From an uncultured Bacteroidota bacterium (lineage in GTDB: Bacteria > Bacteroidota > Bacteroidia > Bacteroidales > WCHB1-69), in NCBI GenBank assembly GCA_942493315.1, contig OW818690.1:2503275-2567274 (forward strand): DNA of 64,000 nt, read 5' to 3'. The translations under genes and the position numbers were made by a program. Shown here piece after piece: positions 3,601 to 58,559 of the stretch (the first letter of the stretch is position 1; each line of letters begins with the position of its first letter). A model generated the notes under the pieces. That model was not told the DNA's origin. It worked only from the letters and a program-made list of their open reading frames with translations, and ran no database searches.

Positions 3601-4752
3601 ATGAAAATTTTTCTTTCCTTGTTATTTATTTGGGCTTTCAGTTTTAACCTTTTTGCTGATCTGAAATATCATCCCATTAAGTTTGAACTATCAACAGAAA
3701 AAGAGTATTATTATGAAGGTGAAAAAATCACTTTTTTAATCACAATAACCAACACAGATAAGGAGAAAACACACCCGGTTTTAATTCCCCATACCCAAAA
3801 TGTAGGTCAGAAATTGTTTTATCTGAACCTTTACGATAAAGCAAATAATACCTTTTTACTCCGGGCAACTGAAGATAAAATGCTGAAAATGATGGTTCAT
3901 GACACAGGATCAGTGAAAATTGTGTATTTGAAACCATTGGAAAAAATTGTGATTCCGATCTATCTTAACGATTTTGAAAACTATTATAGTTATCTTACGC
4001 AAAATAGTTCCCATCATAGTTTAGGAGTTCCCATTTTCGCCGGAATCTATAAAGTAAATGTTATATACAACCCTTATGGACTTGCTTTAGGTGATTCAAT
4101 TTATAATTATTATCACGATACCGAAACAGATCTTCCCATCAACGGGAAATTAGCGATGTGGTCAACCGGTGATCTATCACATCCCATGAATCTAAAAATA
4201 AGAAGAGGAAACGATACCATTGTTTCCATTGAAAGAGATACTTTTTATATCAAAACGGATGGCTATTATTACTACTATATGTCTGAATATGTTCCTACTA
4301 TAACAACTGATTTACGTTGTATACATATTTCCAATTTACCGGCAGATAGTTGTTCTTTGCCCAAAAACGAATATTTTTACTCCCATTTTACAGATCTTTA
4401 TGCTGAATATATGTCCCGGTTTGATGACGGAGATATTCGGGAATACCGGAGGTTTACCGATGATTGTCCTGATTATTTATATACAGAACGATATAATGAG
4501 CAGAAACAGAAAGTGTTATATCAACTTCAATTGCCTGATAAAAGATTTTACAGTGTATCCTATCTTCAACCCCAAAATTCTATCGAAGAGGAGAGTTATT
4601 GCATCCCCAACGGCACGAAATGTTCAGTAACCACTTACAGATATGACAAACAGGGAATATTAATCAAAAAGAAACAGATCGAAACAGAACCTTGTATTGA
4701 AATTGAACTCGAAGGTAAAATAAGAAGCTTAAAAAAAGTAACAAATCTTTAA
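3601..4752 (+). CDS. Hypothetical secreted protein
   Basis: Long ORF with an N-terminal signal peptide; no motif recognised. Confidence 0.55.
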   Translation: MKIFLSLLFIWAFSFNLFADLKYHPIKFELSTEKEYYYEGEKITFLITITNTDKEKTHPVLIPHTQNVGQKLFYLNLYDKANNTFLLRATEDKMLKMMVHDTGSVKIVYLKPLEKIVIPIYLNDFENYYSYLTQNSSHHSLGVPIFAGIYKVNVIYNPYGLALGDSIYNYYHDTETDLPINGKLAMWSTGDLSHPMNLKIRRGNDTIVSIERDTFYIKTDGYYYYYMSEYVPTITTDLRCIHISNLPADSCSLPKNEYFYSHFTDLYAEYMSRFDDGDIREYRRFTDDCPDYLYTERYNEQKQKVLYQLQLPDKRFYSVSYLQPQNSIEEESYCIPNGTKCSVTTYRYDKQGILIKKKQIETEPCIEIELEGKIRSLKKVTNL

Positions 4753-4798
4753 TTAGCAAATTAGCAAATTAGCTGTTGGGTTTTGGGTTTTGGGTTTT
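4753..4798. repeat. TTAGCAAA x2.5 followed by GGGTTTT x3
   Basis: Read directly. The same composite module recurs at 19037-19056. Confidence 0.85.
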
Positions 4799-4858
4799 AC
4801 TTTTTACTTCAAAAAAACTATTCATTTTTCACTATTAGTTATTCACTATTTGTTCATC

Positions 4859-4904
4859 CCCTAAGCAGCTCAACTTGCGGGGTACTTGGCCTCCGCCCTA
4901 ATGC
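4859..4904. repeat. 46-bp GC-rich module (copy 1) CCCTAAGCAGCTCAACTTGCGGGGTACTTGGCCT..CCTAA.GC
   Basis: 43/46 identical to 19436-19481. Confidence 0.85.
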
Positions 4905-6014: not shown

Positions 6015-6164
6015 ATAAACTATTCTTATAAAAGTAGGGTACTGTTTTGATCAAAAATCAACCAATTCGATATCTTCCATGATTTGAATAGGATACAAAA
6101 AATCTCAACCGTTTTTTATTAGAATATAAAATATGGAGTGAAATTGGTAGTTTAATCTGATTTT
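6015..6164. repeat. 150-bp direct repeat, copy 1
   Basis: Near-identical (2 mismatches seen) to 6597-6746. Confidence 0.9.
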
Positions 6165-6255: not shown

Positions 6256-6558
6256 ATGTATCGTTTTTCATTTAAGGAGTTTTTAATCTATTGCTTTTTA
6301 TTTCTAGTTTTAAATTCTCTTTTGGTTATAGGTCTGGGATTTGTTTTTTCATTTCATGAAGAATTAAATGATCAAGGATTTGTTTATATTGTAATTGAAT
6401 CTATTTTAAATTTCTTAATTTATTTAGGATCAATATTTACTCAAAATCAGGATTCTATTTTTCTTAATTATATTCTGTCAATAATAATACTATCAGTATT
6501 GTTTTCATTGATAACTAGTTTTGCTATCAATTTTTTCAAAAAAAACCATTTTAAATAA
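6256..6558 (+). CDS. Small hydrophobic protein (100 aa), hypothetical
   Basis: ORF with three hydrophobic segments, bracketed by the 150-bp direct repeats. Confidence 0.4.
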   Translation: MYRFSFKEFLIYCFLFLVLNSLLVIGLGFVFSFHEELNDQGFVYIVIESILNFLIYLGSIFTQNQDSIFLNYILSIIILSVLFSLITSFAINFFKKNHFK

Positions 6559-6596: not shown

Positions 6597-6746
6597 ATAA
6601 ACTATTCTTATAAAAGTAGGGTACTGTTTTGATCCAAAATCAACCAATTCAATATCTTCCATGATTTGAATAGGATACAAAAAATCTCAACCGTTTTTTA
6701 TTAGAATATAAAATATGGAGTGAAATTGGTAGTTTAATCTGATTTT
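6597..6746. repeat. 150-bp direct repeat, copy 2
   Basis: See copy 1; the two copies are offset by 582 bp. Confidence 0.9.
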
Positions 6747-7649: not shown

Positions 7650-8740
7650 TCTGAAACCTGTGTCAGTATCTTAGTTCAATCCTAATTCAAAGCCGTCAGA
7701 GCATTTGAATTAGGGTTGGACAAAGATACTGAATTATCGTAAATGTTTTTCATATCTTTCACCAAATTTTTCAATTAATTCAATTTGTATTGGTTTCCAG
7801 TTAAAAACTACTTTATTCCAGGATTTTTTATTGTACATAAGCGTTAAATAAAGTTGTTTAATCAGTCCTTTGTCATTGCTCCATCCTCCTTTAGATTTAG
7901 TTACTTTTCTCATGACTCGATGAACTGCTTCAACTGGATTTGTAGTATATATCATTCTTCTAATATTGGGTTTATAATCTAAAAATGGGATGAAGGAATC
8001 CCAATTATTTCTCCAATGATCGATCAACCCTTTATACTTTTTACCCCATTTTTCTTCACAAGATTCCAATGCAAGTTCAGCTTCTATTGCGTTTGTAGAT
8101 TGGTAAATAGCTCTTAAATCAGCACATACAGCTTTCATATCGCGATCACTGACAAAGCGAGTAGAGTATCTAATCATGTGAACTACACAGCGTTGTACAA
8201 TTGCTTTTGGAAAAACAGATTCCAAAGCGTCTTTAAATCCGGCTAACCCGTCAATACAGAAAAATAGAACATCTTCTACTGAATGCCCTCTTGCATAGAG
8301 ACTTAGAATAATTTCATCCATCCCTGTTGTTAACTCTCGCTCCCAGTTCTTGACCATGATCGGTTCATATTCTCCATTCCGATCTCGTGGGGTATTGATA
8401 GATAACATGCCGCCAGTACTTCTGACTTGTTTCTTTTTAAAGCCATTTTTTCTGTTATTCTTCTCTGATACAGATTCTTCTAAATAACTTTCCAATTCCC
8501 CTTCTAATGATAAATTTACCATTCTTTGTAATAAATCAGTAAAAATACCACTCTCTCCAAACAATGGATTGCCTTGATATAATCCACTGATCATGGCTTT
8601 TTGTTCATCTCTATCAGGTATAATTTTGTCAATTTCTTCTTGCAGTTCTTCCTTCCTACTTCTTCTTTTGATTGTCTTTTTCATGTGTCAAATTTGTTTT
8701 TTCAAAATTAATGTTTTTTCCTTTTGACACAGATTTTAGA
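7650..8740 (-). mobile_element. IS256-family element, internally deleted
   Basis: Terminal inverted repeats TCTGAAACCTGTGTC (7650-7664) and GACACAGATTTTAGA (8726-8740), 13/15 complementary, bracket the transposase ORF. At about 1.09 kb it is shorter than typical family members. Confidence 0.7.
7734..8684 (-). pseudogene. IS256 (mutator-type) transposase lacking a central segment
   Basis: N- and C-terminal family blocks are present (YARGHSVEDV ... DGLAGFKDALESVFPKAIVQRCVVHMIR ... TTNPVEAVHR). The roughly 90-110 aa normally between them, which carry the first catalytic Asp, are absent (junction ...SVEDV|LFFCIDGL...). Confidence 0.65.
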
Positions 8741-8765
8741 ATAGTCTCAATCATTCCTATTATTT

Positions 8766-9212
8766 GTTACCTGTTACCTCTTACCTGTTACCTCTTACCT
8801 GTTACTTCTTACCTGTTACTTCTTACTTCTTACTTCTTACCTGTTACTTCTTACTTCTTACTTCTTACCTGTTACCTCTTACTTCTTACCTGTTACCTCT
8901 TACTTCTTACTTCTTACTTCTTACTTCTTACCTCTTACTTCTTACTTCTTACCTGTTACCTCTTACTTCTTACTTCTTACTTCTTACCTGTTACCTCTTA
9001 CCTCTTACCTCTTACCTCTTACCTCTTACCTCTTACTTCTTACCTGTTACCTCTTACTTCTTACTTCTTACTTCTTACTTCTTACCTGTTACCTCTTACT
9101 TCTTACTTCTTACCTGTTACCTCTTACTTCTTACCTCTTACTTCTTACTTCTTACTTCTTACTTCTTACTTCTTACCTCTTACTTCTTACTTCTTATCTC
9201 TTCCTGTTACTT
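8766..9212. repeat. About 74 tandem copies of the degenerate hexamer [C/G]TTAC[C/T]T
   Basis: Read directly. Only two positions vary. Lies between the IS256 end and the operon promoter. Confidence 0.95.
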
Positions 9213-9219
9213 TATTTCG

Positions 9220-9227
9220 TATCTTTG
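9220..9227 (+). promoter_or_regulatory. Bacteroidota-type -7 box TATCTTTG
   Basis: TAnnTTTG match 43 nt upstream of the ATG at 9270. Confidence 0.55.
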
Positions 9228-9269
9228 CAAGTTATTTTGTTATTGTAAAACCAACAATTAAATAGTTCA

Positions 9270-18257: not shown

Positions 18258-19058
18258 ATGAAAATCACATTTTATAAGTATCATGGTGCAGGCAACGATT
18301 TTGTAGCCATAGACAATAGAATTTATCAAAATTTTTCTTCTGAAACAATTCGGTTTTTATGTGATCGGAAGTTTGGTATTGGTGCAGATGGTGTTTTACT
18401 GATCCAAAATGGTACCAATAACGTTGATTTTCATCTGGATTATTACAATTCTGATGGAAATGTAGGTTCACTGTGTGGCAATGGAAGTCGCTGTGCAGTT
18501 GCTTTTGCCCACGATTTAAAAATCATTCAATCCAAAACCCTTTTCAGTGCTTTTGATGGTATTCATGAAGGTTGCTATCAAAATGAAGAGGATGTATGGG
18601 TTTCCATGAACGATGTAAATACCATTGCATTTTTGGAAGATGGTTATTCTTTAAACACTGGATCTCCCCATTTTGTTACTTATGTGGATGATATTCAAAA
18701 TGTTGATGTGTACAATTCCGGTAAAAAAATCAGAAACGATACTCGCTTTCCGGATGGAATTAATGTAAATTTTGTTTCACCATTTCAAGATGGTATTTTC
18801 GTAAGAACTTTTGAAAGAGGTGTTGAAAATGAAACATTGTCTTGCGGTACAGGCGTAACAGCCTCTGCATTAATACATACTATCCATCAGAACTATCCCG
18901 ACGGATCACATCAGGTCAAACTTTATGCGACCGGTGGTAATTTTATTATATCCCTAAACAAAAAGAGCACTCATTTCACTAATATTATCCTCCAAGGACC
19001 CACCAAATTCGTTTTTAAAGGGGAGATTGAAATGAGCAAATTAGCAAATGGGTTTTAA
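18258..19058 (+). CDS. dapF: Diaminopimelate epimerase
   Basis: YHGAGNDFV, CGNGSRC, SPHFV and ETLSCGTG motifs. The last codons are encoded by the TTAGCAAA/GGGTTTT repeat module. Confidence 0.9.
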   Translation: MKITFYKYHGAGNDFVAIDNRIYQNFSSETIRFLCDRKFGIGADGVLLIQNGTNNVDFHLDYYNSDGNVGSLCGNGSRCAVAFAHDLKIIQSKTLFSAFDGIHEGCYQNEEDVWVSMNDVNTIAFLEDGYSLNTGSPHFVTYVDDIQNVDVYNSGKKIRNDTRFPDGINVNFVSPFQDGIFVRTFERGVENETLSCGTGVTASALIHTIHQNYPDGSHQVKLYATGGNFIISLNKKSTHFTNIILQGPTKFVFKGEIEMSKLANGF

Positions 19059-19262
19059 GGTTTAAGGTTTTAGTTTTCAGGTTTTAGTTTTCAGGTTTCA
19101 GTTATCAGTTGTTTAAAGGTTGAACGCTTCGCTGTTTAAAGGTTTAAAAGTTGAAACGTCACTAAACCCTTAATCTCTTAATTTGTAATTCGTATTTCGT
19201 AAATTTTTAATTTTCCCCTTGTCCCTTTCCCCTAATTAGCACATTAGCTTATTATCACATTA
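19037..19262. repeat. Mosaic of short degenerate tandem repeats, mostly 7-nt period
   Basis: GGTTTAA x2, GGTTTTA/GTTTTCA alternating, GTTATCA, TTTAAAGG units, CACATTAGCTTATTAT x2; read directly. Confidence 0.85.
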
Positions 19263-19274
19263 GCTTATTAATCA

Positions 19275-19484
19275 GGGCGTTCCCCTTTGTCTACGCTCAA
19301 CCCAATTCCCCACTCATCGAATATTAAAACCGTCGCTTGCCAAAGGGTCGGTCTCCGGCCTGTACTCCTCGTTTCGCTGCAAGGGTCTGATCGGCCGGGC
19401 AGTAGCTCCTCCGTCGCTCTGCCCGATCCGTCATACCCTAAGCAGCTCAACTTGCGGGGTACTTGGCCTGCGACCTAACGCTCC
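19275..19484. repeat. GC-rich intergenic element (family member 1; possible structured RNA or MITE)
   Basis: Starts GGGCGTTCC and ends CCTAACGC. Shares blocks CAACCCA..ATTCC.CAC and GTACT..TTCGCTGCA with 53196-53374. Its 3' 46 bp repeats 4859-4904. Internal hairpin GATCGG(CCGG)GCAG...CTGCCCGATC. Confidence 0.7.
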
Positions 19485-19569
19485 TTAGTGTCAAAAAAAA
19501 GATAAAAACTTAAGTTATAAAAAAAGTTGTATTTTTGAAAACTAATAAAATATTTATACTTTATTAAAA

Positions 19570-20043
19570 ATGAAAAAAGTTAATATTGAAAAGTTTCAAA
19601 TTGGACAGGAAGAATCGATTTATAAATTGATTAAAAAAGTGTATGATGAATTCGTTTCCATTGATTATTCTGAAGAGGGAAATCAATTTTTTTATGATTG
19701 GATAAACCCTGCTAAAATTTCCGAACGACAAAAAAATCAAGTGAATTTACTCGTAGCCGTAGTAGAAAATCAAATTGTTGGAATGATTGAAATCAGAGAA
19801 AATCTATATATTTCATTGCTATTTGTTGATAAAGCGTTTCATGGAAAAGGTATTGCGAAAAAACTTTATCATGAAGCATTACAAATGCTGATCCAAAGAG
19901 ATCCAAATATTACAAAATTTTATGTACATGCTTCACCATTTTCAATTCCAATCTACCAAAAACTGGGATTTAAAGAAACAGATACTATGCAGGAAAACAA
20001 TGGTATAAAATATGTACCAATGGAAATGATGGTCGGGAAATAA
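19570..20043 (+). CDS. GNAT-family N-acetyltransferase
   Basis: VDKAFHGKGIAKKLY acetyl-CoA-binding motif; size 157 aa. Confidence 0.8.
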   Translation: MKKVNIEKFQIGQEESIYKLIKKVYDEFVSIDYSEEGNQFFYDWINPAKISERQKNQVNLLVAVVENQIVGMIEIRENLYISLLFVDKAFHGKGIAKKLYHEALQMLIQRDPNITKFYVHASPFSIPIYQKLGFKETDTMQENNGIKYVPMEMMVGK

Positions 20044-20092
20044 TTGGTTTTACAAAAAATTTTATTTACATATCAATTTTATGTAAATAATA

Positions 20093-20357
20093 ATGGATTT
20101 TAAGAGTGTTTTTGTTGAATATCTAAAAAATAATTTCACTTTCAATCAGGATGAAATGGATTTAATTTATAGTTATTTTAATCAGGAATATATAAAAAAA
20201 GAAAACCCATTGGTAGTTGCCGGAAAAAGATATACCAAAATAGTATTTGTGATTAGCGGTATTTTTAGAGTTTTTGTAATTGACCCTAAAGGAGATGAAG
20301 TTGTAAAAAATTTTGTTGAATCGAAAAGTTTTTTTGCAGATATTCGAAGTCTTGACA
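20093..20357 (+). pseudogene. Crp/Fnr-type cNMP-binding regulator, N-terminal fragment truncated by an IS
   Basis: N-terminal beta-roll-like sequence (KIVFVISGIFRVFVIDPKGDEVVKNF) runs into the IS5 inverted repeat. No HTH half follows. Confidence 0.55.
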
Positions 20358-21838
<1,481 letters not shown>

Positions 21839-21997
21839 ACTCTGATTGTGCCAAGCCTGCATACAATGGTGTCCCAATTTTGCGATCAAACATCCCAACT
21901 TTGATCCTTCTTTAAAACAATATCACCATCCTGAAATTCAAATTATTTATTTTATTAAAGATACATTATAAAAACATTAGAACATTAAAAAAAATTG

Positions 21998-22005
21998 TAT
22001 ATTTG
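21998..22005 (+). promoter_or_regulatory. Bacteroidota-type -7 box TATATTTG
   Basis: Consensus match about 290 nt upstream of the next ORF (22294). Confidence 0.4.
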
Positions 22006-22293
22006 CGGACTAAAAGAGAACTTAATCTTCCCTTTCATCACTTTCTGACCCAATCTCAACAGAATACAAATAGCCGAGGTTAGTAGCACAAAATGTTACT
22101 GACATCGGCGAAGCCGTAGAAAGAGGTAAGAGAAATATTATGAGTTCATTTGTTAAATGATAATAAAAAAATTTAGAATATTATAAAAGCAATTATACAA
22201 CTAAAAACATACGGTTATCCACCTAAAATGGGAAGCTAACCGCAATAAAGAAGGAAACAGTTACGGTTATATACAAGTTAGCAGCAATTAAAA

Positions 22294-22839
22294 ATGAATA
22301 AATACTTTCTCTTCATAATGTATTTTCTACTTTTCGGTTGTCAATCTTCTGACAAATCTGAAAGCAAAAATAATTCCATAACAACTGCGACTGCAAAAAT
22401 GGATACGAGCAAAACAGACTCGGTCATATCTTCAAAGACAACTATTATTGATACGCTTGAGCTTAAAAAGTTTTGGAATGATTGTATGTTGCCAATTATG
22501 AGTTTGGACAAAGACCAATTAAAACAAATTGTCAACTTTCCATTGGCTGGTGACTGGGGACATATGGTAGGACTAAATAAACCTGAAGAACAATGGACAG
22601 AAAAAGAATTCTACAGCAATTTGCAAAAACTTTTTTATCCAGAATACTTAGACAAATTAAAAAAACAAACCTACAAAGACATTAACGTCTATCAACAAGA
22701 CAATGGAGAAATTAATTTACTTGTGACTGCTAATTTTGAAATGACAGTTGACAATTTCAAAACAGAATCTTCAACCATTCTTAGATTTAAGAAAATAAAC
22801 AACAAATGGAAGTTATACGTAATTTCCCATGCAGGATAA
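22294..22839 (+). CDS. Hypothetical lipoprotein
   Basis: Lipobox LLFGC; no motif recognised. Confidence 0.55.
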   Translation: MNKYFLFIMYFLLFGCQSSDKSESKNNSITTATAKMDTSKTDSVISSKTTIIDTLELKKFWNDCMLPIMSLDKDQLKQIVNFPLAGDWGHMVGLNKPEEQWTEKEFYSNLQKLFYPEYLDKLKKQTYKDINVYQQDNGEINLLVTANFEMTVDNFKTESSTILRFKKINNKWKLYVISHAG

Positions 22840-22849
22840 TTCAACTGCT

Positions 22850-22972
22850 GCTAACAAACGCTAAAACTAATGTGGCCTCGTTCCCGTTGACAATGAAAAA
22901 AAACAATAAATAAAACCAACTCGCTAGGAGCGTGAAGAGTAAGCCACACTAGTCTTAGCGTCAGGCGTTAGC
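22850..22972. other. attC-like imperfect palindrome (candidate recombination site)
   Basis: Arms at 22850-22876 and 22943-22972. Pairing is 6 bp outer (GCTAAC/GTTAGC), an unpaired asymmetric spacer, then 6+4+6 bp with two mismatches, around a 66-nt centre. Confidence 0.45.
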
Positions 22973-22994
22973 GTGCATACAAACTTAAAAAATA

Positions 22995-23789
22995 ATGAGA
23001 CGAATCTTTTTTCTATTTTTTCTTTTGGTTTCAGTTGACATTTTTGGAACTGGTCAAATTCCTGATTATTTGATATACAAAGGGGATACACTTCGTTTAT
23101 ATGCCAATCCTCTGGAATCTTATTTTAATTTTTGGCATAAAAGGCCCACAAAACTATTTGATGAAATAGGGTTTAATTCAACAGCTACCTGGAGGGGGTA
23201 TATTGGTTATTGGGAATTAAGAAATGATAGTTTGTTCCTTAAAAGATTAGAGGGTGATACATGTGACATTGATTTATCGCTAATATTTAAAAAGAGTATA
23301 AAAAATGGAGAAGTTTTTGCATATTGGGTTAATGAGAATTTGCTTAATCCTTATGGTAAGAGAATATATTATATTCATATGGGATATAGTTCATTCTACG
23401 AATTTGAAAGAGAATTTATTTTCAAAAAAGGGATTTTGAAAGATACCTTGTTTTATGATAATTCCAAATCTAAGGAAAGTCAATACACGGAAGATCCTAT
23501 TCTATTGAAAGAGTATATTACATCAAATATTAACTATTCGAATATTACAAACGATCCTTATAAAAATTCAAGAGTAATATTAGAGATACAAAATGTTACC
23601 GAGGAAGGGAAAATAGATAGTGTGATAGTTGTAGAAGGTAATGATGAAGAAAGAAATAAAGAAGCTATTAGAATAGTTAAATCAATTCCTGAATGGACTG
23701 TTATTTTTTCGAGAGGAAAACAAATTCAATTATTTTGGTATCTATTTGTTGAATTTGGAAATAAAAAAGATGAAGATAACGCACGCTAA
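22995..23789 (+). CDS. Hypothetical secreted protein with TonB-C-like C-terminal region
   Basis: Signal peptide. The C-terminal ~70 aa resemble a TonB C-terminal fold pattern (weak). The stop codon lies inside a CGCTAAC box. Confidence 0.5.
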   Translation: MRRIFFLFFLLVSVDIFGTGQIPDYLIYKGDTLRLYANPLESYFNFWHKRPTKLFDEIGFNSTATWRGYIGYWELRNDSLFLKRLEGDTCDIDLSLIFKKSIKNGEVFAYWVNENLLNPYGKRIYYIHMGYSSFYEFEREFIFKKGILKDTLFYDNSKSKESQYTEDPILLKEYITSNINYSNITNDPYKNSRVILEIQNVTEEGKIDSVIVVEGNDEERNKEAIRIVKSIPEWTVIFSRGKQIQLFWYLFVEFGNKKDEDNAR

Positions 23790-23874
23790 CTCGAGGTATA
23801 AAAAATAGCAGGTAAAAATTAAATTTAGGATTATGTTGAATATTTATAATAAAAATAACTTTAATAAGGAATTA

Positions 23875-24414
23875 ATGAAATATTGGGGATTTTTAATTAT
23901 AGTTTTATTTGTAAGTTGTAAAGCACTGAGAAATGAGGAGGAGCCCAAATCTGATCTATCTGTTCATTTTCAAAATCAAGGAGAGCAAGAAAAATATTGG
24001 GCTAAACAGTTTTTTGAGAAAAATTATGAAAAATCTGAATATTCTAAATTTAATGGACAAGTGAAAATTACTAACTCTGAAATTCAAATAGGAGAAAAAG
24101 ATTATATCAGCAATTTATATTCTAATCAAAAATACAATTTGATTTTTGAAAAAGGATTACTTTATCCAAGTCTTTTAATGAGTGACTCTTTGTATATTTG
24201 CTGTATTGAAGAATTACCTTTTTTATCTGATAATCCACAAATAAAAAGATTTAGATTTTTACTTTCAGTGAAAATTAGAAATATAGAACTTTTAAACCCA
24301 AGTGTTTATCTATTTGAACTTACTAATGAAAAAGCAACAAAAGATGATAATTGGGAAGTCTTTATAGAAAATGCAAAATTGACTTTCTTAAAATATGGGT
24401 GGTCTCAAATTTAA
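23875..24414 (+). CDS. Hypothetical lipoprotein
   Basis: ORF 23833..24414. The internal Met at 23875 gives lipobox LFVSC. Confidence 0.5.
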   Translation: MKYWGFLIIVLFVSCKALRNEEEPKSDLSVHFQNQGEQEKYWAKQFFEKNYEKSEYSKFNGQVKITNSEIQIGEKDYISNLYSNQKYNLIFEKGLLYPSLLMSDSLYICCIEELPFLSDNPQIKRFRFLLSVKIRNIELLNPSVYLFELTNEKATKDDNWEVFIENAKLTFLKYGWSQI

Positions 24415-24716
24415 AAAACAGCCCCTTTCAATCCTAAACCCAACTTAGATTTCTCCACGTGACAACAAAAAAATAAACTAACACTCGCTGGCCAATCGAT
24501 GCGAATATAGATAGTTTTAGCACTATACGTTAGCGACAAGCAAATAAGACATAAAAATTCAAATCAATATGAAAAAATTAAATACTTTATCAACTATTGA
24601 ATTCAAAACAGCAAAATCATTTTAAAAGAACTAAACAAAAATAAAATAACTTAAATTTCTTTTGCCAATTGACGCAATTGAACTCAAAATATTATTACAA
24701 CTTTATGGCTTATATT

Positions 24717-25253
24717 ATGAAAAACAAAATTTCCATATTAGTAATATTGCTGATTCTATTTACTTCTTGCACCAGTCATGATGCTAAAAAAATTAAATTA
24801 TATGGTTTTTCCAATCAAAAAGAAGTTAAATATGAAGAAGGTAATTCAATTTTTTATATTGGACTTAATGATTATTTTGAATATTTAAATAAAAGAGCAA
24901 AGGAAAAATTACTATCTAATGAAGATAGCTGTATTATCAAATATCTGGAAACTATTAAAGACAAATCTATTACAATATCTGATACAACTTCATTACATGG
25001 AATAAGAAAAGATATATTTTCAGATGGAAAAGATACTGTTTTGACAAGTATTAATATTTATCCGGTAGATAATTTTAGGTGGGCTATAATTTATTTTGCA
25101 AAAAAAGGAAATATTAAAATTTATAATAAGAAAAAGAAAAAATTTGTACAAAACATAATAGTTGACGAAATTGAATATTCAAATTCTGCTGAAGTTGTAA
25201 TAATGTTAGAAAATAAAGTTCAAATATTTGATCAACTAAGATGGGCATATTAA
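24717..25253 (+). CDS. Hypothetical lipoprotein
   Basis: ORF 24669..25253. The ATG at 24717 gives MKNKISILVILLILFTSC. Confidence 0.5.
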   Translation: MKNKISILVILLILFTSCTSHDAKKIKLYGFSNQKEVKYEEGNSIFYIGLNDYFEYLNKRAKEKLLSNEDSCIIKYLETIKDKSITISDTTSLHGIRKDIFSDGKDTVLTSINIYPVDNFRWAIIYFAKKGNIKIYNKKKKKFVQNIIVDEIEYSNSAEVVIMLENKVQIFDQLRWAY

Positions 25254-25379
25254 AATACAATAGTCACGTAGACAAACATTTATAACATCTTTTTAAAATT
25301 ATCTTCACATGGTACATTAAGTTTTATATCTATTAATGAAATAAGTTAAAATGTATGATCATGAGATAATTTGATTATC

Positions 25380-26018
25380 TCACTTTCTTCCAAAGTCCGC
25401 CGGAATCTCACCCCACTTTTTGGTGTTCCACTTGATGATTTGTGTGGTGAATGTGTTGTTGTTTAACCAAAATTCTGCTCGGGCTAAAAGATCAAAAATT
25501 ACATCGTTAGCATCGGTCGGTAAAACTATCGATTTGTGCTTTTTGTGCCTAACCCACGCAATGGCTGTGATACTGTCGGAGTATAAAGGTAATGGGGAAT
25601 TCATCTGCTTGAGAAGCGCTAACCCATGAACTAAAGCTAAGAATTCTCCAATATTATTACTGGCTCCCTGAAATGGTCCTTTATGAAACCAAAGCTCTTT
25701 AGTTGCTGAATAAACCCCTCTGTATTCCATCTGTCCTGTAACCATGTTACAGGCTGCATCTACCGCCAAACTGTTCAAAATGGGCTGCTCATTGTTTCCT
25801 GTTATGGAATAACTTGATCTATTTGATGTTGATGGATTTTTTTTGTAATATTTGGAATATCCATCCATAAATGCTTTATCTGCTTCAATTTTGGATTCAA
25901 ATGATTTATACTTGGCTCCATCAAATCCAAAAACCTGATCGTTACAAGATTTCCAATTGTCAAAGACGCCACAAATGCGCCCACTCCAAACTACATAGTA
26001 TTTTTGCTTAGTTGTCAT
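25380..26018 (-). CDS. rnhA: Ribonuclease HI with N-terminal hybrid-binding domain
   Basis: N-terminal KYYVVWSGRICGVFDNWKSCNDQV...KYKSFES motif plus an RNase H core (DAACN, GEFLALVHGL, YSDS). Confidence 0.85.
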   Translation of the reverse strand: MTTKQKYYVVWSGRICGVFDNWKSCNDQVFGFDGAKYKSFESKIEADKAFMDGYSKYYKKNPSTSNRSSYSITGNNEQPILNSLAVDAACNMVTGQMEYRGVYSATKELWFHKGPFQGASNNIGEFLALVHGLALLKQMNSPLPLYSDSITAIAWVRHKKHKSIVLPTDANDVIFDLLARAEFWLNNNTFTTQIIKWNTKKWGEIPADFGRK

Positions 26019-31869: not shown

Positions 31870-32000
31870 CCTTTCGCCCTTAGCCTTTCGTCTTAATAGC
31901 ACACTGATGACACTGATTAAACAGATGACCACAGATTAGAAATAAGCTAATTTGAAATTAAACCAAAATCAAGTATTATAGCTAGATAATTCAAAAAAAA

Positions 32001-32114
32001 TTATTTCACAATGTTACACAGTGTTGAATGATGTTTCACAGTGTTAATTTATCCTAACTTTTTAATTTTAATACACTTTGGAACACAATATAACACAGTG
32101 GGACGCTACTATCC
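32001..32114. repeat. 114-bp CACAGTG-rich quasi-palindromic element, copy A
   Basis: Aligns along its length with 56066-56179. Confidence 0.8.
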
Positions 32115-32156
32115 AAAAAAATAAAATTTAATGAATTACTTTTTAATTTCTTAAAT

Positions 32157-32202
32157 CCCTTTAGCCCTTAGCCCTTAGCCCTTAGCCCTTAGCCCTTAGC
32201 CT
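32157..32202. repeat. CCCTTAG heptamer x5-6
   Basis: Read directly; runs up to the stop codon of the minus-strand gene at 32203. Confidence 0.9.
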
Positions 32203-33636
32203 TTATTTCCCGGATCCTTTCAATACGATCAAAGCTGTGTAAATCAGAATTTTAAAGTCCATTTGAAGAGACATATTATCTAAGTATAAAATATCCCATT
32301 TTAAGCGTTCAACCATCTCATCCACATTTTCAGCATATCCAAACTTCACTTGTCCCCAGGAAGTCATGCCTGGTTTGATGGTCATCAAAAGTTTGTAGTA
32401 TGGTGCAACTTTAACAATTTGATCGATATAATATTGTCGCTCAGGACGAGGACCTACTAATGACATATCTCCTTTTAAAACATTGAAAAACTGAGGAATC
32501 TCATCTAAACGGGATTTTCTCATGAATTTTCCGAAATTGGTAATTCTGGAATCCGTTTTGCTCGATAATTGAGGTGTCCCCACTTCAGCATTCACCACCA
32601 TTGATCTGAATTTGATGATTTTAAAAGTTTTCCCCATCAACCCAATTCTCTCTTGAGTGTAAAATATGGGTCCTTTTGAAGTTATTTTTACCCCAATAAT
32701 TAAAAATAAGTACAATGGGGATAGTATGATAATAGCAATTAAAGATAAAAAAATATCTGTGACCCTTTTCAGTTGTTGTTGAAATGGTGTTAGTTTTTCA
32801 TGTGAAATTAAAATCAGTGGTTCTTGTAAAACATTAGATGTTTTGATATTACCTAAAATATAATCTTGCGTTAAAGGGATAATTTTTAACACCAAATTAC
32901 GGGTATATCCAACAGTGGAAATGATCGTGTCAATATGTTTCCTTTTCCCGTTTTGAACCGCAAGAATTAACTCATCCACTTGATATTGCTGAATCAGATT
33001 GGTCAGATCTTCCATAGTACCCAAACATGGGATTTTTTCAGAAATAATATGATCCGTTTCATCTGGAACAGTCACATATCCAACGATATATTTTGCGGCA
33101 GATTTGTCTTGTTTAGTGATATTCAAATAGGTATTCAAAGCATTTTGATCACTACCTACAATAATCGTATTAAATCCAATTTTCCCGTTTGAAATTTTTG
33201 TATTGATGATTGTTGTTATCGTGACTTTTGGAATGTACGTCAAAAGAAATTGAAGAGAAAAATAGAGTAGAAAATATTTTACTAATTCAATTTGTCTGAT
33301 ATTTTCATTGGTCACCTGATCATCAAGTATAAATAAAAAGAAAAATATTATAGAGCCTAAAAGCGAGATCCAAAACGTGAGTCCAAATTCCTGAATCCTT
33401 GATTTTTTATATAATTTCGTATAATAACCTGATAAGGCGTAGAAAAAAAGCCAAACAGGAACTACAAACATGATCCCATAATATAAGTTAGGATCTAAAA
33501 GAACCGAATCTGTGAAATTAGGATAGAAAAAAGGATTTATATTGTATTTTCTATAAATAAAAAATAAAAACCAGGCTATGAGAGATCCGAAAAAATCAAA
33601 GAATATGTAAGAAAAAAAGAGTTTATTTCTATTCAT
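32203..33636 (-). CDS. Polyprenyl-phosphate sugar phosphotransferase (WbaP/EpsB-like initiating transferase)
   Basis: N-terminal TM segments; C-terminal bacterial sugar transferase motifs DEIPQFFNVLKGDMSLVGPRPE and PGMTSWGQV. Confidence 0.85.
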   Translation of the reverse strand: MNRNKLFFSYIFFDFFGSLIAWFLFFIYRKYNINPFFYPNFTDSVLLDPNLYYGIMFVVPVWLFFYALSGYYTKLYKKSRIQEFGLTFWISLLGSIIFFFLFILDDQVTNENIRQIELVKYFLLYFSLQFLLTYIPKVTITTIINTKISNGKIGFNTIIVGSDQNALNTYLNITKQDKSAAKYIVGYVTVPDETDHIISEKIPCLGTMEDLTNLIQQYQVDELILAVQNGKRKHIDTIISTVGYTRNLVLKIIPLTQDYILGNIKTSNVLQEPLILISHEKLTPFQQQLKRVTDIFLSLIAIIILSPLYLFLIIGVKITSKGPIFYTQERIGLMGKTFKIIKFRSMVVNAEVGTPQLSSKTDSRITNFGKFMRKSRLDEIPQFFNVLKGDMSLVGPRPERQYYIDQIVKVAPYYKLLMTIKPGMTSWGQVKFGYAENVDEMVERLKWDILYLDNMSLQMDFKILIYTALIVLKGSGK

Positions 33637-53062: not shown

Positions 53063-53195
53063 ATTTTGTTCATTTACAATATTAATATAATTAACGAACA
53101 AAGATAACAAATTGATATGGTTTTAAAAATAGATACATGATTATTTTTCAACACCCCAATATTGATAAATGGAGTGAATAGTGAATAGTGAATTT

Positions 53196-53374
53196 GGGCG
53201 TTCCGGCATCAGCCAACCCACGATTCCACCCTGCTGCCGTCGGGCTTTTCAGGGGTCCGCTTCGCTCCCGTACTTCGCTGCACATCGCTTAAGATGGTTC
53301 ATCCTGAATCGGATTAATCATCGCGGCGCTCGTTCCAGCTCGTACCGCTTCGCGCCCTTCCAATCCCTAACGCG
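53196..53374. repeat. GC-rich intergenic element (family member 2)
   Basis: Same termini (GGGCGTTCC ... CCCTAACGC) and internal blocks as 19275-19484. Flanked by GTGAATA x3 (53174-53194) and GTTATCA x3 (53379-53402). Confidence 0.7.
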
Positions 53375-53407
53375 ATAAGTTATCAGTTATCAGCTATCAG
53401 TTTTCTA

Positions 53408-53434
53408 ACGGTCAACCAAATTTAGGCATTGACA
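53408..53434. mobile_element. Orphan terminal inverted repeat of the IS3-family element
   Basis: 26-27 nt identical to the reverse complement of the left end of the intact IS (56790-56815). No IS body is adjacent. Confidence 0.8.
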
Positions 53435-54468: not shown

Positions 54469-54637
54469 TGCGGTCTTTGTAGCAGATGATTGGTGTTGTG
54501 ATGATTTAGAGGGGCGGAGCCCTGAGATCTTAAATAATGAAAAATGAAGAATTAAAAATGAAAAATGTCAGGGCTAACGCCCCTTTTGTGGTTGTGGGGA
54601 TCGCATTTTCTACAAAGATCGCAGGGCTACGCCCCTG
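54469..54637. repeat. GC-rich REP-like inverted-repeat cluster
   Basis: AGGGGCGGAGCCCTGA (54510-54525) is inverted relative to TCAGGGCTAACGCCCCT (54568-54584) and CAGGGCTACGCCCCTG (54622-54637). GCGGTCTTTGTAG is inverted relative to CTACAAAGATCGC. Confidence 0.75.
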
Positions 54638-54665
54638 ATAAAAATCGAAACGCCGTTGCCATTGC

Positions 54666-54887
54666 CTATTTGAAACTTCCCGATGGTCATTTGAAACTTC
54701 CCGATGGTCATTTGAAACTTCCCGATGGCTATTTGAAACTTCCCGATGGCTATTTGAAACTTCCCGATGGCTATTTGAAACTTCCCGATGGCTATTTGAA
54801 ACTTCCCGACGACTATTTGAAACTTCCCGATGGTTATTTGAAACTTCCCGATGGTTATTTGAAACTTCCCGATGGTTATTTGAAAAC
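54666..54887. repeat. 21-bp tandem repeat, about 10.5 copies (consensus CTATTTGAAACTTCCCGATGG)
   Basis: Read directly. Variation is confined to the first two bases of each unit plus one GACGA variant. Confidence 0.95.
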
Positions 54888-54913
54888 TACGGTTCTCTAT
54901 ATGAAAACCGTAG
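54882..54913 (-). terminator. Rho-independent terminator of gene 54931..55674
   Basis: CTACGGTT (54887-54894) pairs with AACCGTAG (54906-54913). A T-run follows on the minus strand, 18 nt after the stop. Confidence 0.65.
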
Positions 54914-54930
54914 TATCAGATTTCTTTTAG

Positions 54931-55946: not shown

Positions 55947-56065
55947 GGTTTTCCAAATAGTAACCAAAAACAAGCCATTTTGTGATTTATAACGACTCTC
56001 GATTTCGGAACATTTTGAATGAAAAATGGGAAATGAAGACGTTTGTCTTTCGTCCTTTGTCCTAA

Positions 56066-56179
56066 TTATTTCACAGTGTTTCACAGTGTTAAACGATGTT
56101 TCACAGTGTTGATGTGTCCTGATTTTTAAATTTATAAACACTGTGGAACACATTATAACACAGTGGGACACTGTGATCC
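56066..56179. repeat. 114-bp CACAGTG-rich quasi-palindromic element, copy B
   Basis: Six CACAGTG/CACTGTG heptamers with spacings of 10, 20, 37, 20 and 10 nt. Homologous to 32001-32114. Confidence 0.8.
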
Positions 56180-56273
56180 TATTTAATATTACAATATAAA
56201 TGAATAATCAAAAATGAAAATCTTTGCCTTTCCTTTTGCCCTAAAAGAAAGCGGATTTTAATAACTTAAAAAA

Positions 56274-56747
56274 TTATCTTTTATTCTCTTTCCTCAGGAT
56301 ATACCCACTCGTTTCGGAAGTGTACAATTTCAGTTCCAGATAGGTTTGTTGATCAATAAAAACCATTTTATATTTAGAATCGCTAAAAAAGTGCTCCATT
56401 TGAGAATCTCCCACATATTCCAGGTGAAGTGTGTCTGATGAAATTTCCCAAGTATAAAGTTCTTGTTGATCGGAGTTTTTTTGTAAAGTTGCATTAAACT
56501 GATCTCTAAAAGTTATAACCGGACAAACATTACAGATGATTACATTTTCTTCAGATATGGAATCAGAAACCATCTTTTCTGAAAATGTTGCATTAACATT
56601 CCATTCTCCCAAGGTTTGGGAGATCATAACGGAACGCATTATAACACTATATGATTTGTCTATTTTAGCCGTATCAGCCTGCCCAAACCCTTGGATTTGA
56701 AACAAACAGAAAACAAAAATTATAAAGGGTATGATCTTATTATTCAT
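56274..56747 (-). CDS. Hypothetical secreted protein
   Basis: Signal peptide MNNKIIPFIIFVFCLFQIQGFGQA. Confidence 0.5.
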   Translation of the reverse strand: MNNKIIPFIIFVFCLFQIQGFGQADTAKIDKSYSVIMRSVMISQTLGEWNVNATFSEKMVSDSISEENVIICNVCPVITFRDQFNATLQKNSDQQELYTWEISSDTLHLEYVGDSQMEHFFSDSKYKMVFIDQQTYLELKLYTSETSGYILRKENKR

Positions 56748-56791
56748 TATTCACTATTCATTATTAATTATTCATTATTCACTATTCACTG

Positions 56792-57733
56792 TCAATGCCT
56801 AAATTTGGTTGACCGTTTGTTTACTTGTTTTTGGCATATTATCATTGGTTGACTTGTCCTTGTTGGGGAGCTCTGAGCTTGGTCTTGGGCTAGCCCAAGA
56901 CCAAGCTCAGAGCTGGGTTCCAAAATTTTTGAAGATTTTTTTTCTTCGGGATTTTGGTTTTGCAAATATATACTTTTTTCGAATGAAATTGGTGACTTTC
57001 TTTGTAGCTTACAATGAGGCTTTTCGTAGTTATAAAGGTACACTGATCGGTCAACTTCTTTCACTAATGTCTCGTAATTAGTAATCGTTCTGTAGCTTAA
57101 ATAGTTGTTTTTAATCACTCCATTAATTCTCTCTGCTTTACCATTCTCCCAGGGGGCAACACACATACTATGGAGAAAATCTTCAGTCACATCTAAAAAC
57201 TCTTTTGCACCATATTGTCTACCGCCATCTGAATGAAAAATTAAGCCGTTTAGATCTTCCCCTTTACGGAACCTTAATGCGCTATTTAATGATGCAATTA
57301 CTGTCTGCTCTGTCGTTAAACGCTTTGATACAGAATATCCTACAATAACTCTTGAGTAAGCATCAATTATAAAGGTAATATAGTAAAAATGACCATTAAT
57401 TTTGTAATATGTGGTGTCTGATTGCCAAACTTGATTAATCCTGGTTATCTCTAAGTTTTTAATTAAATTATCAAAACGGATTACTCCACTACTATCTGTA
57501 GTATGAATAAATCTCTTTTTCCTCTTTATCATTAATCCTGCAAGCTTACACAATTCTTCAAATTGATCTCTCCCAACATAACAAGGTCGCTTTTTATAAT
57601 AAATATCCCTTACACCCATAGTGGGATGATCCATCCTGACTTCGAAAACAATTTCCTTCACTAAATGAAGAATGTCCTTTTTTTTATTGTCTCTTTGAAG
57701 GATTTTATATACTGCTTGTTTGCTGATATTCAT
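56792..57733 (-). CDS. IS3-family transposase OrfB (rve integrase core)
   Basis: WQSDTTY, HSDGGRQY and NGKAERING D-D-E context. Confidence 0.9.
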   Translation of the reverse strand: MNISKQAVYKILQRDNKKKDILHLVKEIVFEVRMDHPTMGVRDIYYKKRPCYVGRDQFEELCKLAGLMIKRKKRFIHTTDSSGVIRFDNLIKNLEITRINQVWQSDTTYYKINGHFYYITFIIDAYSRVIVGYSVSKRLTTEQTVIASLNSALRFRKGEDLNGLIFHSDGGRQYGAKEFLDVTEDFLHSMCVAPWENGKAERINGVIKNNYLSYRTITNYETLVKEVDRSVYLYNYEKPHCKLQRKSPISFEKSIYLQNQNPEEKKSSKILEPSSELGLGLAQDQAQSSPTRTSQPMIICQKQVNKRSTKFRH

Positions 57734-57750
57734 AGCTTTATAAAGTGCAT

Positions 57751-58167
57751 TTAGTGAGTGATGGTATTCATCTTGATGTTCTTGATAATGTCGGAAGGTG
57801 TCGTTTCGAACTTTTTTTTTATATCAACACCATAATGATCCTCTGCGATTTCAATCATTTTGTCTTTAAATTCTAGAAGAATTTGCTTTTCTCCAATAAT
57901 CATTTTGAGATGTGCATTCTCTTTTTTTAAAGCCATTATTTGTTTAGTATCACTCTCAGTTTCAATAACTAATCTTTCTTTTTTTGTTTTCATATTGCCA
58001 TATTTATTTAACCATTGATAAATTGTACCTCTCACGGTATCATATTGTCTGCAAAGGTCGGCAATTTTTGTTTGTCCAGATTCAATCTCTTGGACTTTTT
58101 TTCTCTTGAAGCTTTCACTAAAGTGTCTTCTTTTTCTTTCTTCTAATGTTAAACTAATTTCTTTCAT
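57751..58167 (-). CDS. IS3-family transposase OrfA (HTH)
   Basis: N-terminal HTH (RRHFSESFKRKKVQEIESGQTKIADLCRQYDTVRGTIYQWLNK) plus a leucine-zipper-like region. Confidence 0.9.
   Translation of the reverse strand: MKEISLTLEERKRRHFSESFKRKKVQEIESGQTKIADLCRQYDTVRGTIYQWLNKYGNMKTKKERLVIETESDTKQIMALKKENAHLKMIIGEKQILLEFKDKMIEIAEDHYGVDIKKKFETTPSDIIKNIKMNTITH
57812..57820 (-). other. Probable -1 programmed frameshift site (A9 run) joining OrfA and OrfB
   Basis: On the minus strand, ATATAAAAAAAAAGTT lies within OrfA. The OrfB frame is open from this point (KKKVRNDTFRHYQEHQDEYHHSLNALYKAMNISKQ). Confidence 0.7.
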
Positions 58168-58286
58168 AGGTTCACTTTTTTATTTAATTTGTTATTTAAA
58201 AGTGGTCAACCTATTTCAGGCATTGACACACTATTCATTATTCACTATTCATTATTCACTATTCTCTAATCACTAATCACTATTCA

Positions 58287-58559
58287 CTATTCACTATTCA
58301 CTAATCTCTGGTACGCCTTCAGGTATTTGTTGAGTCTTTTCCGGTCTTGATCGGTGATTTGGGGGAGGCGGGTGATAACCATGTTGTTGCGGAGATCGTT
58401 GAGTTTGACGGTGATGGCGGTTTTGTTGGTGAGGATCCGGTCGATGAAGTAGTCGTAATTTTCCTGTTCTGATTCTTTGGTGTCCAGTCTCAGCACGTTA
58501 ATGAACTCCTCGGAGAACTCCTTTTATTGCAGCATATCGAAGGTACAAGGGGTATCCTC
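58287..58559 (-). pseudogene. Truncated, stop-interrupted paralogue of the adjacent HD hydrolase (GC-richer copy)
   Basis: Reads EDTPCTFDMLQ*KEFSEEFINVLRLDTKESEQENYDYFIDRILTNKTAITVKLNDL, which aligns with aa ~55-147 of ORF 58658..59101. In-frame TAA at 58524-58526. The N-terminal half is missing, and the C-terminal codons come from the heptamer tract. Confidence 0.75.

Follow-up and report, generated by a model that had tools for sequence, protein, structure and literature searches.

Background

Among the 'sRNAs' most often annotated in bacterial genomes (PMC9029176) is the Flavo-1 RNA motif (Rfam RF01705), which has been catalogued since 2010, is classed as a probable RNA and has no known function (Weinberg et al. 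2010, PMC2864571). The Rfam model consists of a hairpin alone, spanning 76 positions, and its gathering score is 42 bits. The clean published alignment comprises 239 members; in it, the record of F. psychrophilum is named 96 times and that of F. johnsoniae 35 times (PMC2864571). According to the F. psychrophilum transcriptome study, Flavo-1 hits are sense or antisense relative to transcribed regions, and many fall outside such regions (PMC9723704). The published alignment includes the sequences flanking the hairpin (Weinberg et al. 2010, Additional file 4); the members of it that are used here are five, namely two from F. psychrophilum, one from Gramella forsetii and those of the records NC_004703.1 and NC_006873.1. 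Tandem TAACTGA arrays, which also bear on what follows, have been described in Bacteroidetes (MacGregor 2015, PMC4679880).

Here three intergenic elements, termed A, B and C, within a 64,000-nucleotide stretch of DNA from an uncultured Bacteroidota bacterium (the whole stretch being called the window) are compared with Flavo-1 and with dispersed repeats of other bacteria. These elements belong to a large, many-copy family of the Bacteroidota.

Results

Three elements in the window

A sequence-only reading of the window had proposed that stretches at 19275-19484 and 53196-53374 share their termini, that both are G+C-rich and intergenic, and that a partial third copy occurs at 4859-4904. That observation is confirmed, with the ends now placed at 19481 and 53373 and the third copy extended to 4854-4904:

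19275..19481, minus strand: element A, a complete copy of the A-type subfamily
53196..53373, minus strand: element B, a complete copy of the B-type subfamily, with a conserved AAA tail at 53193-53195
4854..4904, minus strand: element C, a truncated A-type copy, abutted by heptamer arrays

For these elements, and for the helices listed further below, the minus strand is the G-rich strand and corresponds to the Rfam orientation of Flavo-1; it serves as a label only and does not denote a functional strand.

Element A begins with GGGCGTTCC at 19275 and ends with CCTAACGC at 19481; B likewise begins with GGGCGTTCC, at 53196, and ends with CCCTAACGC at 53373. The three-block pattern GGGCGTTCC..CAACCCA..CCTAAYGC occurs in the window in A and B only, and in none of 100 shuffled versions. 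In a window that is 33.1% G+C overall, A and B are the two strongest G+C islands (19266-19515, peaking at 63%, and 53148-53388, peaking at 59%). A is located between dapF and a GNAT gene, and B between an ORF6N gene and a gene for a 1027-aa TPR protein; both elements being read on the G-rich strand, A is antisense to its neighbour genes and B is sense. C is 92% identical over 51 nt to positions 19431-19481 of A. A BLAST comparison of A with B detects no similarity beyond short blocks; the relationship between these two becomes clear only through relatives elsewhere. The identity of A, B and C is secure, and the window contains 2.5 copies in 64 kb.

Relatives in other genomes

Outside the window, the three-block pattern retrieved B-like copies with 78% identity, which two contigs of one Bacteroidales MAG carry, and a chimeric copy from a soil Bacteroidetes MAG, in which the middle has been replaced by heptamer arrays. 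A metagenome scan was then based on a two-block pattern of 21 bases from the 5' part of the element (TGGGCGTTCCGGC, followed after 20-40 nt by GCCGTCGG), which matched at least 120 loci; about half of the 120 that were listed hold true elements and the rest are G+C-rich chance matches. The true elements among the matches listed end, 96-207 nt downstream, in (A/C)TCCCTAACGC--an end that is absent from the search pattern. On the C-rich strand, the common layout is GGGCGTTCCGGC, a variable hairpin, GCCGTCGGGCTTTCCGCT.CAAT, a second variable hairpin and CCGCTTCAATCCCTAACGC. (A match from the genome scan that lies within a coding region of Pedobacter, L002, is a chance occurrence of the three-block pattern.)

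The carriers of these copies span 31-65% G+C. The proteins of the window are closest to those of Bacteroidales and Lentimicrobiaceae MAGs (50-56% identity), and for one high-G+C carrier (L096) the closest MAG proteins are labelled Flavobacteriales. Two copies occur on a single contig in L003, L045, L096, L103 and L118, and truncated or interrupted copies are represented by C and by L004. A BLAST search of A and B against 72,556 plasmids gave no match; viral contigs gave 10 pattern matches, of which at most one (L135) is a plausible divergent copy, and thus no link to phages.

A three-way junction with covarying helices

When 13 compact foreign copies were aligned and folded with RNAalifold, a three-way junction was obtained, in which helix P1 joins both termini, P2 is a long, irregular hairpin of variable length and P3 is a second variable hairpin. 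A covariance model (R1) was built from the same 13 copies, four of which are RF01705 hits and none of which comes from the window. With filters off, R1 aligned at full length to B (53196-53373, 46 bits, E 1.2e-9) and to A (19275-19481, 15.4 bits, E 0.045) and found nothing else in the window at E < 1. As a control for specificity, R1 detected 56 copies in true-element loci and just 5 in the other 70 loci that match the pattern (427 kb); in all, 61 of the listed matches score with R1 and about 65 loci with G+C-rich pattern-only matches do not.

An nhmmer profile of four foreign A-type copies matched A at E 4.6e-28, and it is through A-type copies carrying the canonical 5' and 3' cores that A is joined to the family. 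The same profile matched C at E 6.2e-9 over model positions 1-52 only, which identifies C as a truncated copy that is unable to fold: on the G-rich strand C retains only the 5' third of the element, that is, one strand each of P1 and P2, so that the junction cannot form. The helices of the two complete copies are as follows:

19277..19281, minus strand: A, 3' strand of P1 (AACGC), placed by covariance-model alignment; its partner is 19477-19481 (GCGUU)
19283..19347, minus strand: A, variant P3 with a CCCUUUG/CAAAGGG closure in place of CGGC/GCCG
19350..19475, minus strand: A, P2, a long rod-like helix at the position of the Flavo-1 hairpin
53198..53202, minus strand: B, 3' strand of P1 (AACGC); its partner is 53369-53373 (GCGUU)
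53204..53239, minus strand: B, P3 (CGGC...GCCG)
53242..53367, minus strand: B, expanded P2, whose base, GGGAUUGGAAGGG... / ...CUGAAAAGCCC, corresponds to the base of the Flavo-1 hairpin

P1 consists of 5 bp (GCGUU/AACGC on the G-rich strand) and is the very pairing of GCGTT with AACGC that had been noticed at the ends of A and B; elsewhere in the family it takes the compensatory forms GCAUU/AAUGC, GCGUG/CACGC and GGGUU/AACCC. In the fold of the compact copies, P3 is closed by CGGC/GCCG. The variant P3 of A is found also in a copy at 12022-12231 of the relative L128 (about 90% DNA identity to the window), and hence is a trait of the subfamily rather than a sign of decay. The lengths of P2 and P3 are extremely variable, giving units of 96-207 nt. 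The junction nucleotides and the CCC-AAA tail are nearly invariant in genomes of 31-65% G+C.

Covariation, for which the sequence-only reading had suggested a test, was assessed on 52 distinct aligned copies, for which 90.9% of the pair cells are standard pairs. Changes on both sides of a pair occupy 184 cells, as compared with 57 +/- 6 for column shuffles and 22-50 when partners are slid, and 18 of the 26 pairs covary. Covariation is thus strong. Each subfamily, moreover, has its own long, covarying P2. Among 13 B-type sequences, the covarying pairs of B's P2 are at alignment columns 33/104, 37/99 and 39/97. Among five A-type sequences (A, L015, L115, L003b and L004), compensatory changes occur at 21 of the 51 predicted pairs of A's P2, whose base reads GGUCGCAGGCC..GUAC / GUAC..GGCCGGAGACC and which incorporates the GATCGG..CTGCCCGATC hairpin that had been seen in the letters of A.

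Considered singly, A folds better than its shuffles (z -5.5 and -6.25 for the two strands) and B does not (z about -1.1). The G-rich strand gives the better minimum free energy in every case, as would be expected, which is no guide to the strand; nor do G-U versus A-C counts give a robust signal (13 versus 31 for the G-rich strand, the majority from distal columns that align poorly).

Relationship to Flavo-1

The sequence-only reading had recognised no known RNA class, and Rfam indeed reports no family in the window at gathering score. Its suggestion that a clear Rfam hit would count against a novel family has a divided outcome: for A and B, even at E <= 10, Rfam returns no Flavo-1 match, only noise such as HOTTIP and snoRNA fragments, and yet the link to Flavo-1 is made through intermediates and a purpose-built model. 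RF01705 matches the P2 of the compact relatives L117, L029, L025 and L102 at 42-54 bits on the G-rich strand; A and B escape it because their P2 and P3 are greatly expanded. R1, which includes accepted Flavo-1 members, recovers both B and A at the E-values given above.

The base of the Flavo-1 hairpin is characterised by GGG-A-UU-GAA-GC-GG... / ...GC-GGA-AA-G-CCC and by 3x3 internal loops of purines, with UAG ahead of it and GA behind. B retains GCGUUAGGGAUUGGAAGGG... and ...CUGAAAAGCCCGA, with insertions; A retains GCGUUAGG and CCGA and has a different, covarying sequence at the base of P2. The flanks of the five published members used here supply the remainder of the unit. In all five, GCGU(U/G)AGGG stands ahead of the hairpin and equals the GCGUUAGGG start of the window family, and after the hairpin come CCCGAC or CCCGGC, a P3 of 3-4 bp, (A/C)ACGCCC and an A-rich tail (PMC2864571); among these members a U-A to G-C change in P1 has been made on both sides, and heptamer arrays follow one of the five (PMC2864571). 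Inasmuch as these flanks contain P1, P3 and the tail, the three-way junction belongs to the published family and extends beyond the annotated motif.

The distribution also agrees, both Flavo-1 and the present family being found in Bacteroidota with many copies per genome. The F. psychrophilum genome is about 2.9 Mb in size, which, if one line of the published alignment is one member, gives about one copy per 30 kb, similar to the 2.5 copies in 64 kb of the window. A and B are therefore relatives of Flavo-1, divergent and expanded, to which the operational definition of the motif does not apply.

Ends, flanks and neighbouring genes

Where copies occur in unrelated contexts, similarity stops 0-5 nt from the ends of the element. 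B, for example, is 86-93% identical to copies in L064, L017 and L014, and in the comparison with L064 the identity of 92.9% runs from -2 to +3. Within 52 distinct flanks, the base preceding GCGUU is always a pyrimidine and the bases after ...CGCCC are AAA (the first A being forced by the search pattern, the second and third occurring in 43/51). These flanks show no target-site duplication and no long inverted repeat.

Copies adjoin the 3' ends of genes, in either orientation. Among 35 cases classified by a crude ORF call, 22 have co-directional flanking genes, 12 convergent ones and just one divergent ones; the GCGUUAGGG end has a gene reading towards and into it in 34/47 cases, the other end in 22/41. 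The neighbouring genes have no common function, and those between paired copies (L003, L045, L096 and L103) are unrelated to one another and include one ordinary IS4-like DDE gene and no Y1 transposase.

Many low-G+C copies are preceded by a short module--A-tract, hairpin, T-tract--that is predicted to terminate in both directions, and are followed by tandem arrays of 7- or 8-nt units in an order that recurs across organisms. The arrays beside A and B are these (no strand being assigned):

19212..19270: 7-/8-nt arrays (TTTCCCC, ATTAGCAC) abutting A, found with TRF; the order of modules is kept beside copies elsewhere
53173..53193: (AGTGAAT)3 array between B and the start of homology to L128 (53170)
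53378..53402: (AGTTATC)3.6 array at the opposite flank of B, reverse-complementary to TAACTGA repeats

The segment 19213-19283, which leads from the first of these arrays into A, is 93% identical to positions 10857-10927 of L064.

Several other repeats of the window and of the loci carrying the family were noted. Arrays of 7-/8-nt units, with many different units, occupy numerous intergenic stretches, among them 1064-1160, 4751-4850, 8774-9196, 19030-19270, 32161-32205, 56739-56788 and 58229-58303; the largest (8774-9196) comprises 60 copies of TTACTTC and overlaps ORFs at 8672-9265 and 8764-9261. Some of the units are the reverse complement of TAACTGA repeats (PMC4679880). Such arrays directly abut many copies of the family and, in L004, replace the apex of P2. 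An IS3-family element (56790-58228; HTH_Tnp_1 ORF at 57751-58167, rve ORF at 56792-57733) has the terminal repeats TGTCAATGCCTAAATTTGGTTGACC / GGTCAACC..AGGCATTGACA, its host site being a (TATTCAC/TATTCAT)n array that flanks both ends, and a perfect 28-nt solo copy of one of its ends is located at 53407-53434, 33 nt from B. Within the variable segment next to B, at 54565-54930, a 21-nt tandem repeat (array 54666-54885, 10.5 copies, 95%) makes up most of a 121-aa ORF. Elsewhere in the window, a 150-nt direct repeat (99%; 6015-6164 and 6597-6746) brackets a small ORF (6256-6558), and a 125-nt dispersed repeat (82%; 31999-32123 and 56064-56188) is rich in TTTCACAGTG-like 10-mers, related pieces being conserved in L014 and L037. 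The heptamer GCGAAGC, which forms an unusually stable DNA mini-hairpin, occurs six times in the window versus 1.4 expected; three of the six are in or beside elements (19126-19132, 53259-53265 and 53347-53353), all on the G-rich strand, and AGCGAAGYG recurs in AT-rich modules flanking the L001 and L003 copies.

A second hairpin repeat, GTCA-YCCYGAGC..GTCGARGGR-TG or TCGTCATTGCGAGG..AAGCAATC, with covarying stems and a conserved GAGCG.AG.CGA loop, adjoins high-G+C copies (L005, L024, L096 and L045) and occurs also within P3 (L102, L047, L010 and L019). The TD-2 RNA (Rfam RF03162, 64-79 bits) lies directly upstream of the element in L025 (274-370) and L029 (535-632), overlapping it by about 10 nt, with its last hairpin at the place where the terminator-like module adjoins other copies. 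TD-2 may be another module of the same mosaic rather than an independent sRNA.

Presence and absence in relatives

The comparison of relatives for empty sites, which had also been proposed from the sequence alone, revealed differences in presence and absence, but no clean pair of filled and empty sites. At the TPR locus, homology between the window and L128 (about 90% in DNA, 96% for the TPR protein) ends at 53170, 26 nt before B, and L128 lacks B; it has different repeats and a different gene there. (At B's position, L128 5460-5890 consists of another repeat family, GTATCGAAGCGCCGACGCCATGAAA and related units in both orientations.) L130, with 77% TPR identity, has an adenylate kinase gene, a 158-nt spacer and the TPR gene, and no element. 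At the epimerase locus it is L128 that carries a copy, of A-type, after the epimerase gene, whereas the orthologue in the window abuts the next gene with a 3-nt gap. At the dapF locus, L126 (69% DapF identity) has a copy of B-type that starts 10 nt past the stop codon of dapF and is oriented like A; an element after dapF that is of the other subtype could reflect retention instead of mobility. Contigs of three other assemblies end no more than about 30 nt from the stop of dapF, which would be expected with a repeat following dapF, and in another relative dapF is directly followed by genes whose place in the window is about 6 kb further along.

All three comparable cases--the TPR, epimerase and dapF loci--are thus at synteny breakpoints. 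They show turnover of copies between relatives, each case being confounded by replacement of a larger segment; among the relatives compared, no clean empty site with precise junctions was found, and both differences in presence coincide with such replacements.

As to the segments themselves, each full copy lies at the border of a stretch (19059-25380 for A, 53171 to about 58650 for B) that relatives lack or have exchanged for other DNA. The first contains an IS5-like transposase gene (20392-21816, DUF772/DDE_Tnp_1). In the second are the IS3 element, the ORF6N gene and, at 58290-58559, a G+C-rich piece with a 69% match to a 143-aa protein of L128, probably a gene fragment.

Discussion

The explanation that fits best, and that is considered probable, is that A and B, both complete, and the broken C are copies of a dispersed structured repeat of the Bacteroidota that resembles REP/BIME elements, rather than sRNA genes or riboswitches. 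This is indicated, as opposed to a set of sRNA genes or to cis-regulation of one pathway, by the copy number, the mixed orientation, the scarcity of copies in divergent promoter regions, the sharp ends, the fragments and the turnover. The near-invariant junction, in turn, implies a sequence-specific partner. Under this explanation, the fold would form either in read-through transcripts or in single-stranded DNA, where a sequence-specific factor would recognise the invariant junction, which would account both for its conservation and for the spread of the copies; the local effect, if any, would be that of a stable 3'-end structure or a protein-binding site. The modest bias for a gene reading into the GCGUUAGGG end (34/47) counts against a repeat, as does the lack of a mobilising enzyme among the genes between paired copies, and the near-invariance of about 45 nt across the phylum would also suit a functional RNA.

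A serious rival, judged unlikely but with the best claim among the alternatives, is the published reading of Flavo-1, by which each copy is a small structured ncRNA gene that is transcribed from the G-rich strand and acts in trans, for example by binding a protein or as a catalyst, with the conserved three-way junction as its framework. The strong covariation and the invariant junction nucleotides speak for it, as do its classification as a probable RNA by Rfam and by Weinberg et al. (2010, PMC2864571), the TTTG-containing sequence or hairpin that is often found ahead of the GCGUUAGGG end, and the co-orientation with the gene at that side noted above. It has difficulty, however, with one small genome being named about 96 times in the published alignment, with copies in both orientations relative to neighbour genes, with a transcriptome in which hits are sense, antisense or untranscribed (PMC9723704), with the extreme variability of P2 and P3 (96-207 nt overall) and with the existence of truncated copies. 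No convincing promoter or terminator was found at A or B by a scan with the sigma-70 consensus, which is unfit for Bacteroidota.

Somewhat less probable again, and offered as speculation, is the possibility that the whole three-way-junction unit is the working module of Bacteroidota-wide mobile elements, copied or moved by an enzyme that would read the junction in single-stranded DNA or RNA (a RAYT-like Y1 transposase or a reverse transcriptase), with the A-rich tail and heptamer arrays arising as by-products and the clustering at breakpoints arising from recombination that the unit provokes.

That A and B are decaying, inactive relics, persisting in tolerated intergenic DNA at the edges of islands, is improbable. 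C is a fragment, A has an atypical P3 and a poor score in the general model, and insertion sequences are abundant in the regions next to both A and B; against this, all three helices are kept in A and B, A folds at z about -6, its atypical P3 is conserved in L128, and the 93% identity of B to one copy whose context is unrelated extends through the apical region. Slightly less probable still is that the elements are recombination or attachment sites at the ends of mobile islands, with the junction being read by a recombinase that the island encodes. The positions of A (between conserved dapF and a segment absent from a relative), of B (26 nt beyond the end of homology to L128) and of L128's A-type copy (at the breakpoint that follows its epimerase gene) are what attachment sites would predict, but neither island of the window has a second copy at its other end, most copies elsewhere sit between ordinary housekeeping genes, no recombinase is consistently adjacent, and copies are far too dense in F. 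psychrophilum to mark the ends of islands.

Least credible is that these are classical MITEs, that is, deletion derivatives of DDE-transposase insertion sequences moved via terminal inverted repeats (TIRs) and making target-site duplications: the size range, the multiple intergenic copies and the IS5-like and IS3-like transposases nearby in the window would fit, but the termini are complementary only in the 5 bp of P1 (GCGTT/AACGC), which at one end lies 3 nt inwards and which is shorter than the about 10 bp or more expected of a TIR, the flanks of 52 copies contain no duplication, the ends are unrelated to the IS3-like TIRs (TGTCAATGCC...) and no parent element was found.

Two further kinds of candidate were set aside. 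A coding relic is rejected on account of stops in every frame of the conserved core. The core motifs of tRNA-like structures, hammerhead and other ribozymes, bridge RNA and omega-RNA do not match the junction sequence as judged by inspection, Rfam being the one tool applied. MITEs, coding relics and the known ribozyme or guide-RNA classes are thus not supported.

The interpretation given from the sequence alone--either an undescribed ncRNA family or a non-autonomous mobile element--is accordingly partly supported. A structured, modular, non-coding intergenic family does exist, and an ncRNA versus a non-autonomous repeat were the right alternatives to weigh; what falls away is 'undescribed', the central hairpin being Flavo-1, along with the MITE version of the mobile element.

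Comparison with known systems

Of the repeats to which the family may be compared, PATEs (derived from IS200/IS605) likewise have no TIR, no target duplication and conserved hairpins that can be read on one DNA strand, and the pyrimidine that always precedes the GCGUU end here is a further likeness. The family differs from them in that the two hairpins are unlike each other, no Y1 partner is found between paired copies and no conserved target tetranucleotide is demonstrated. ERIC/IRU, Correia (Neisseria), BOX and RUP (pneumococcal) elements are similarly 100-200 nt long and modular (BOX being built from modules A, B and C), intergenic, co-transcribed with their neighbours and strongly structured; none has a sequence relationship to the present family, which also lacks the TIRs and target duplications of Correia and RUP.

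Closer in behaviour are the REP/BIME elements of enterobacteria and pseudomonads, which are associated with RAYT transposases. They too occur in dozens to hundreds of extragenic copies near the 3' ends of genes, in either orientation, form hairpins and are arranged as mosaics in which other short motifs keep a recurring order; the family described here likewise lies at gene 3' ends within such mosaics. REPs, however, are imperfect palindromes of 20-40 nt with a GTAG end, unlike the three-way junctions of 100-210 nt (96-207 nt by measured unit) described here, and no RAYT-like gene is linked to these in a scan of the genes between paired copies. Because the unit behaves as a REP/BIME-type repeat and not as a gene, Flavo-1 hits should be annotated as repeats rather than as regulators.

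Closest of all is Flavo-1 itself, with which the family shares the phylum, the multi-copy habit, the conserved hairpin with its symmetric purine-rich internal loops (GGGAUUGAAGCGG... / ...AGCGGAAAGCCC), GCGUUA before and GA after that hairpin, and flanks containing the 3' strand of P1, a small P3 and a CCC-A-rich tail. The differences are that the Rfam model describes only the 76-nt hairpin, without P1, P3 or the tail; that A and B have a P2 of about 125 nt and a P3 of 36-65 nt, versus about 50 and about 10 nt in the five published members used here; and that A-type copies have another sequence in the base of P2. The family, then, is not a new class, since its core hairpin is already catalogued; what is new are expanded subtypes, which go undetected by the Rfam model. 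The 76-nt hairpin of the catalogue forms a single arm of a larger three-way junction whose termini pair. Strongly expanded subfamilies of this unit escape that model, and the better search model obtained here would help to find the factor that recognises the junction and to explain why elements, heptamer arrays and synteny breakpoints coincide in Bacteroidota.
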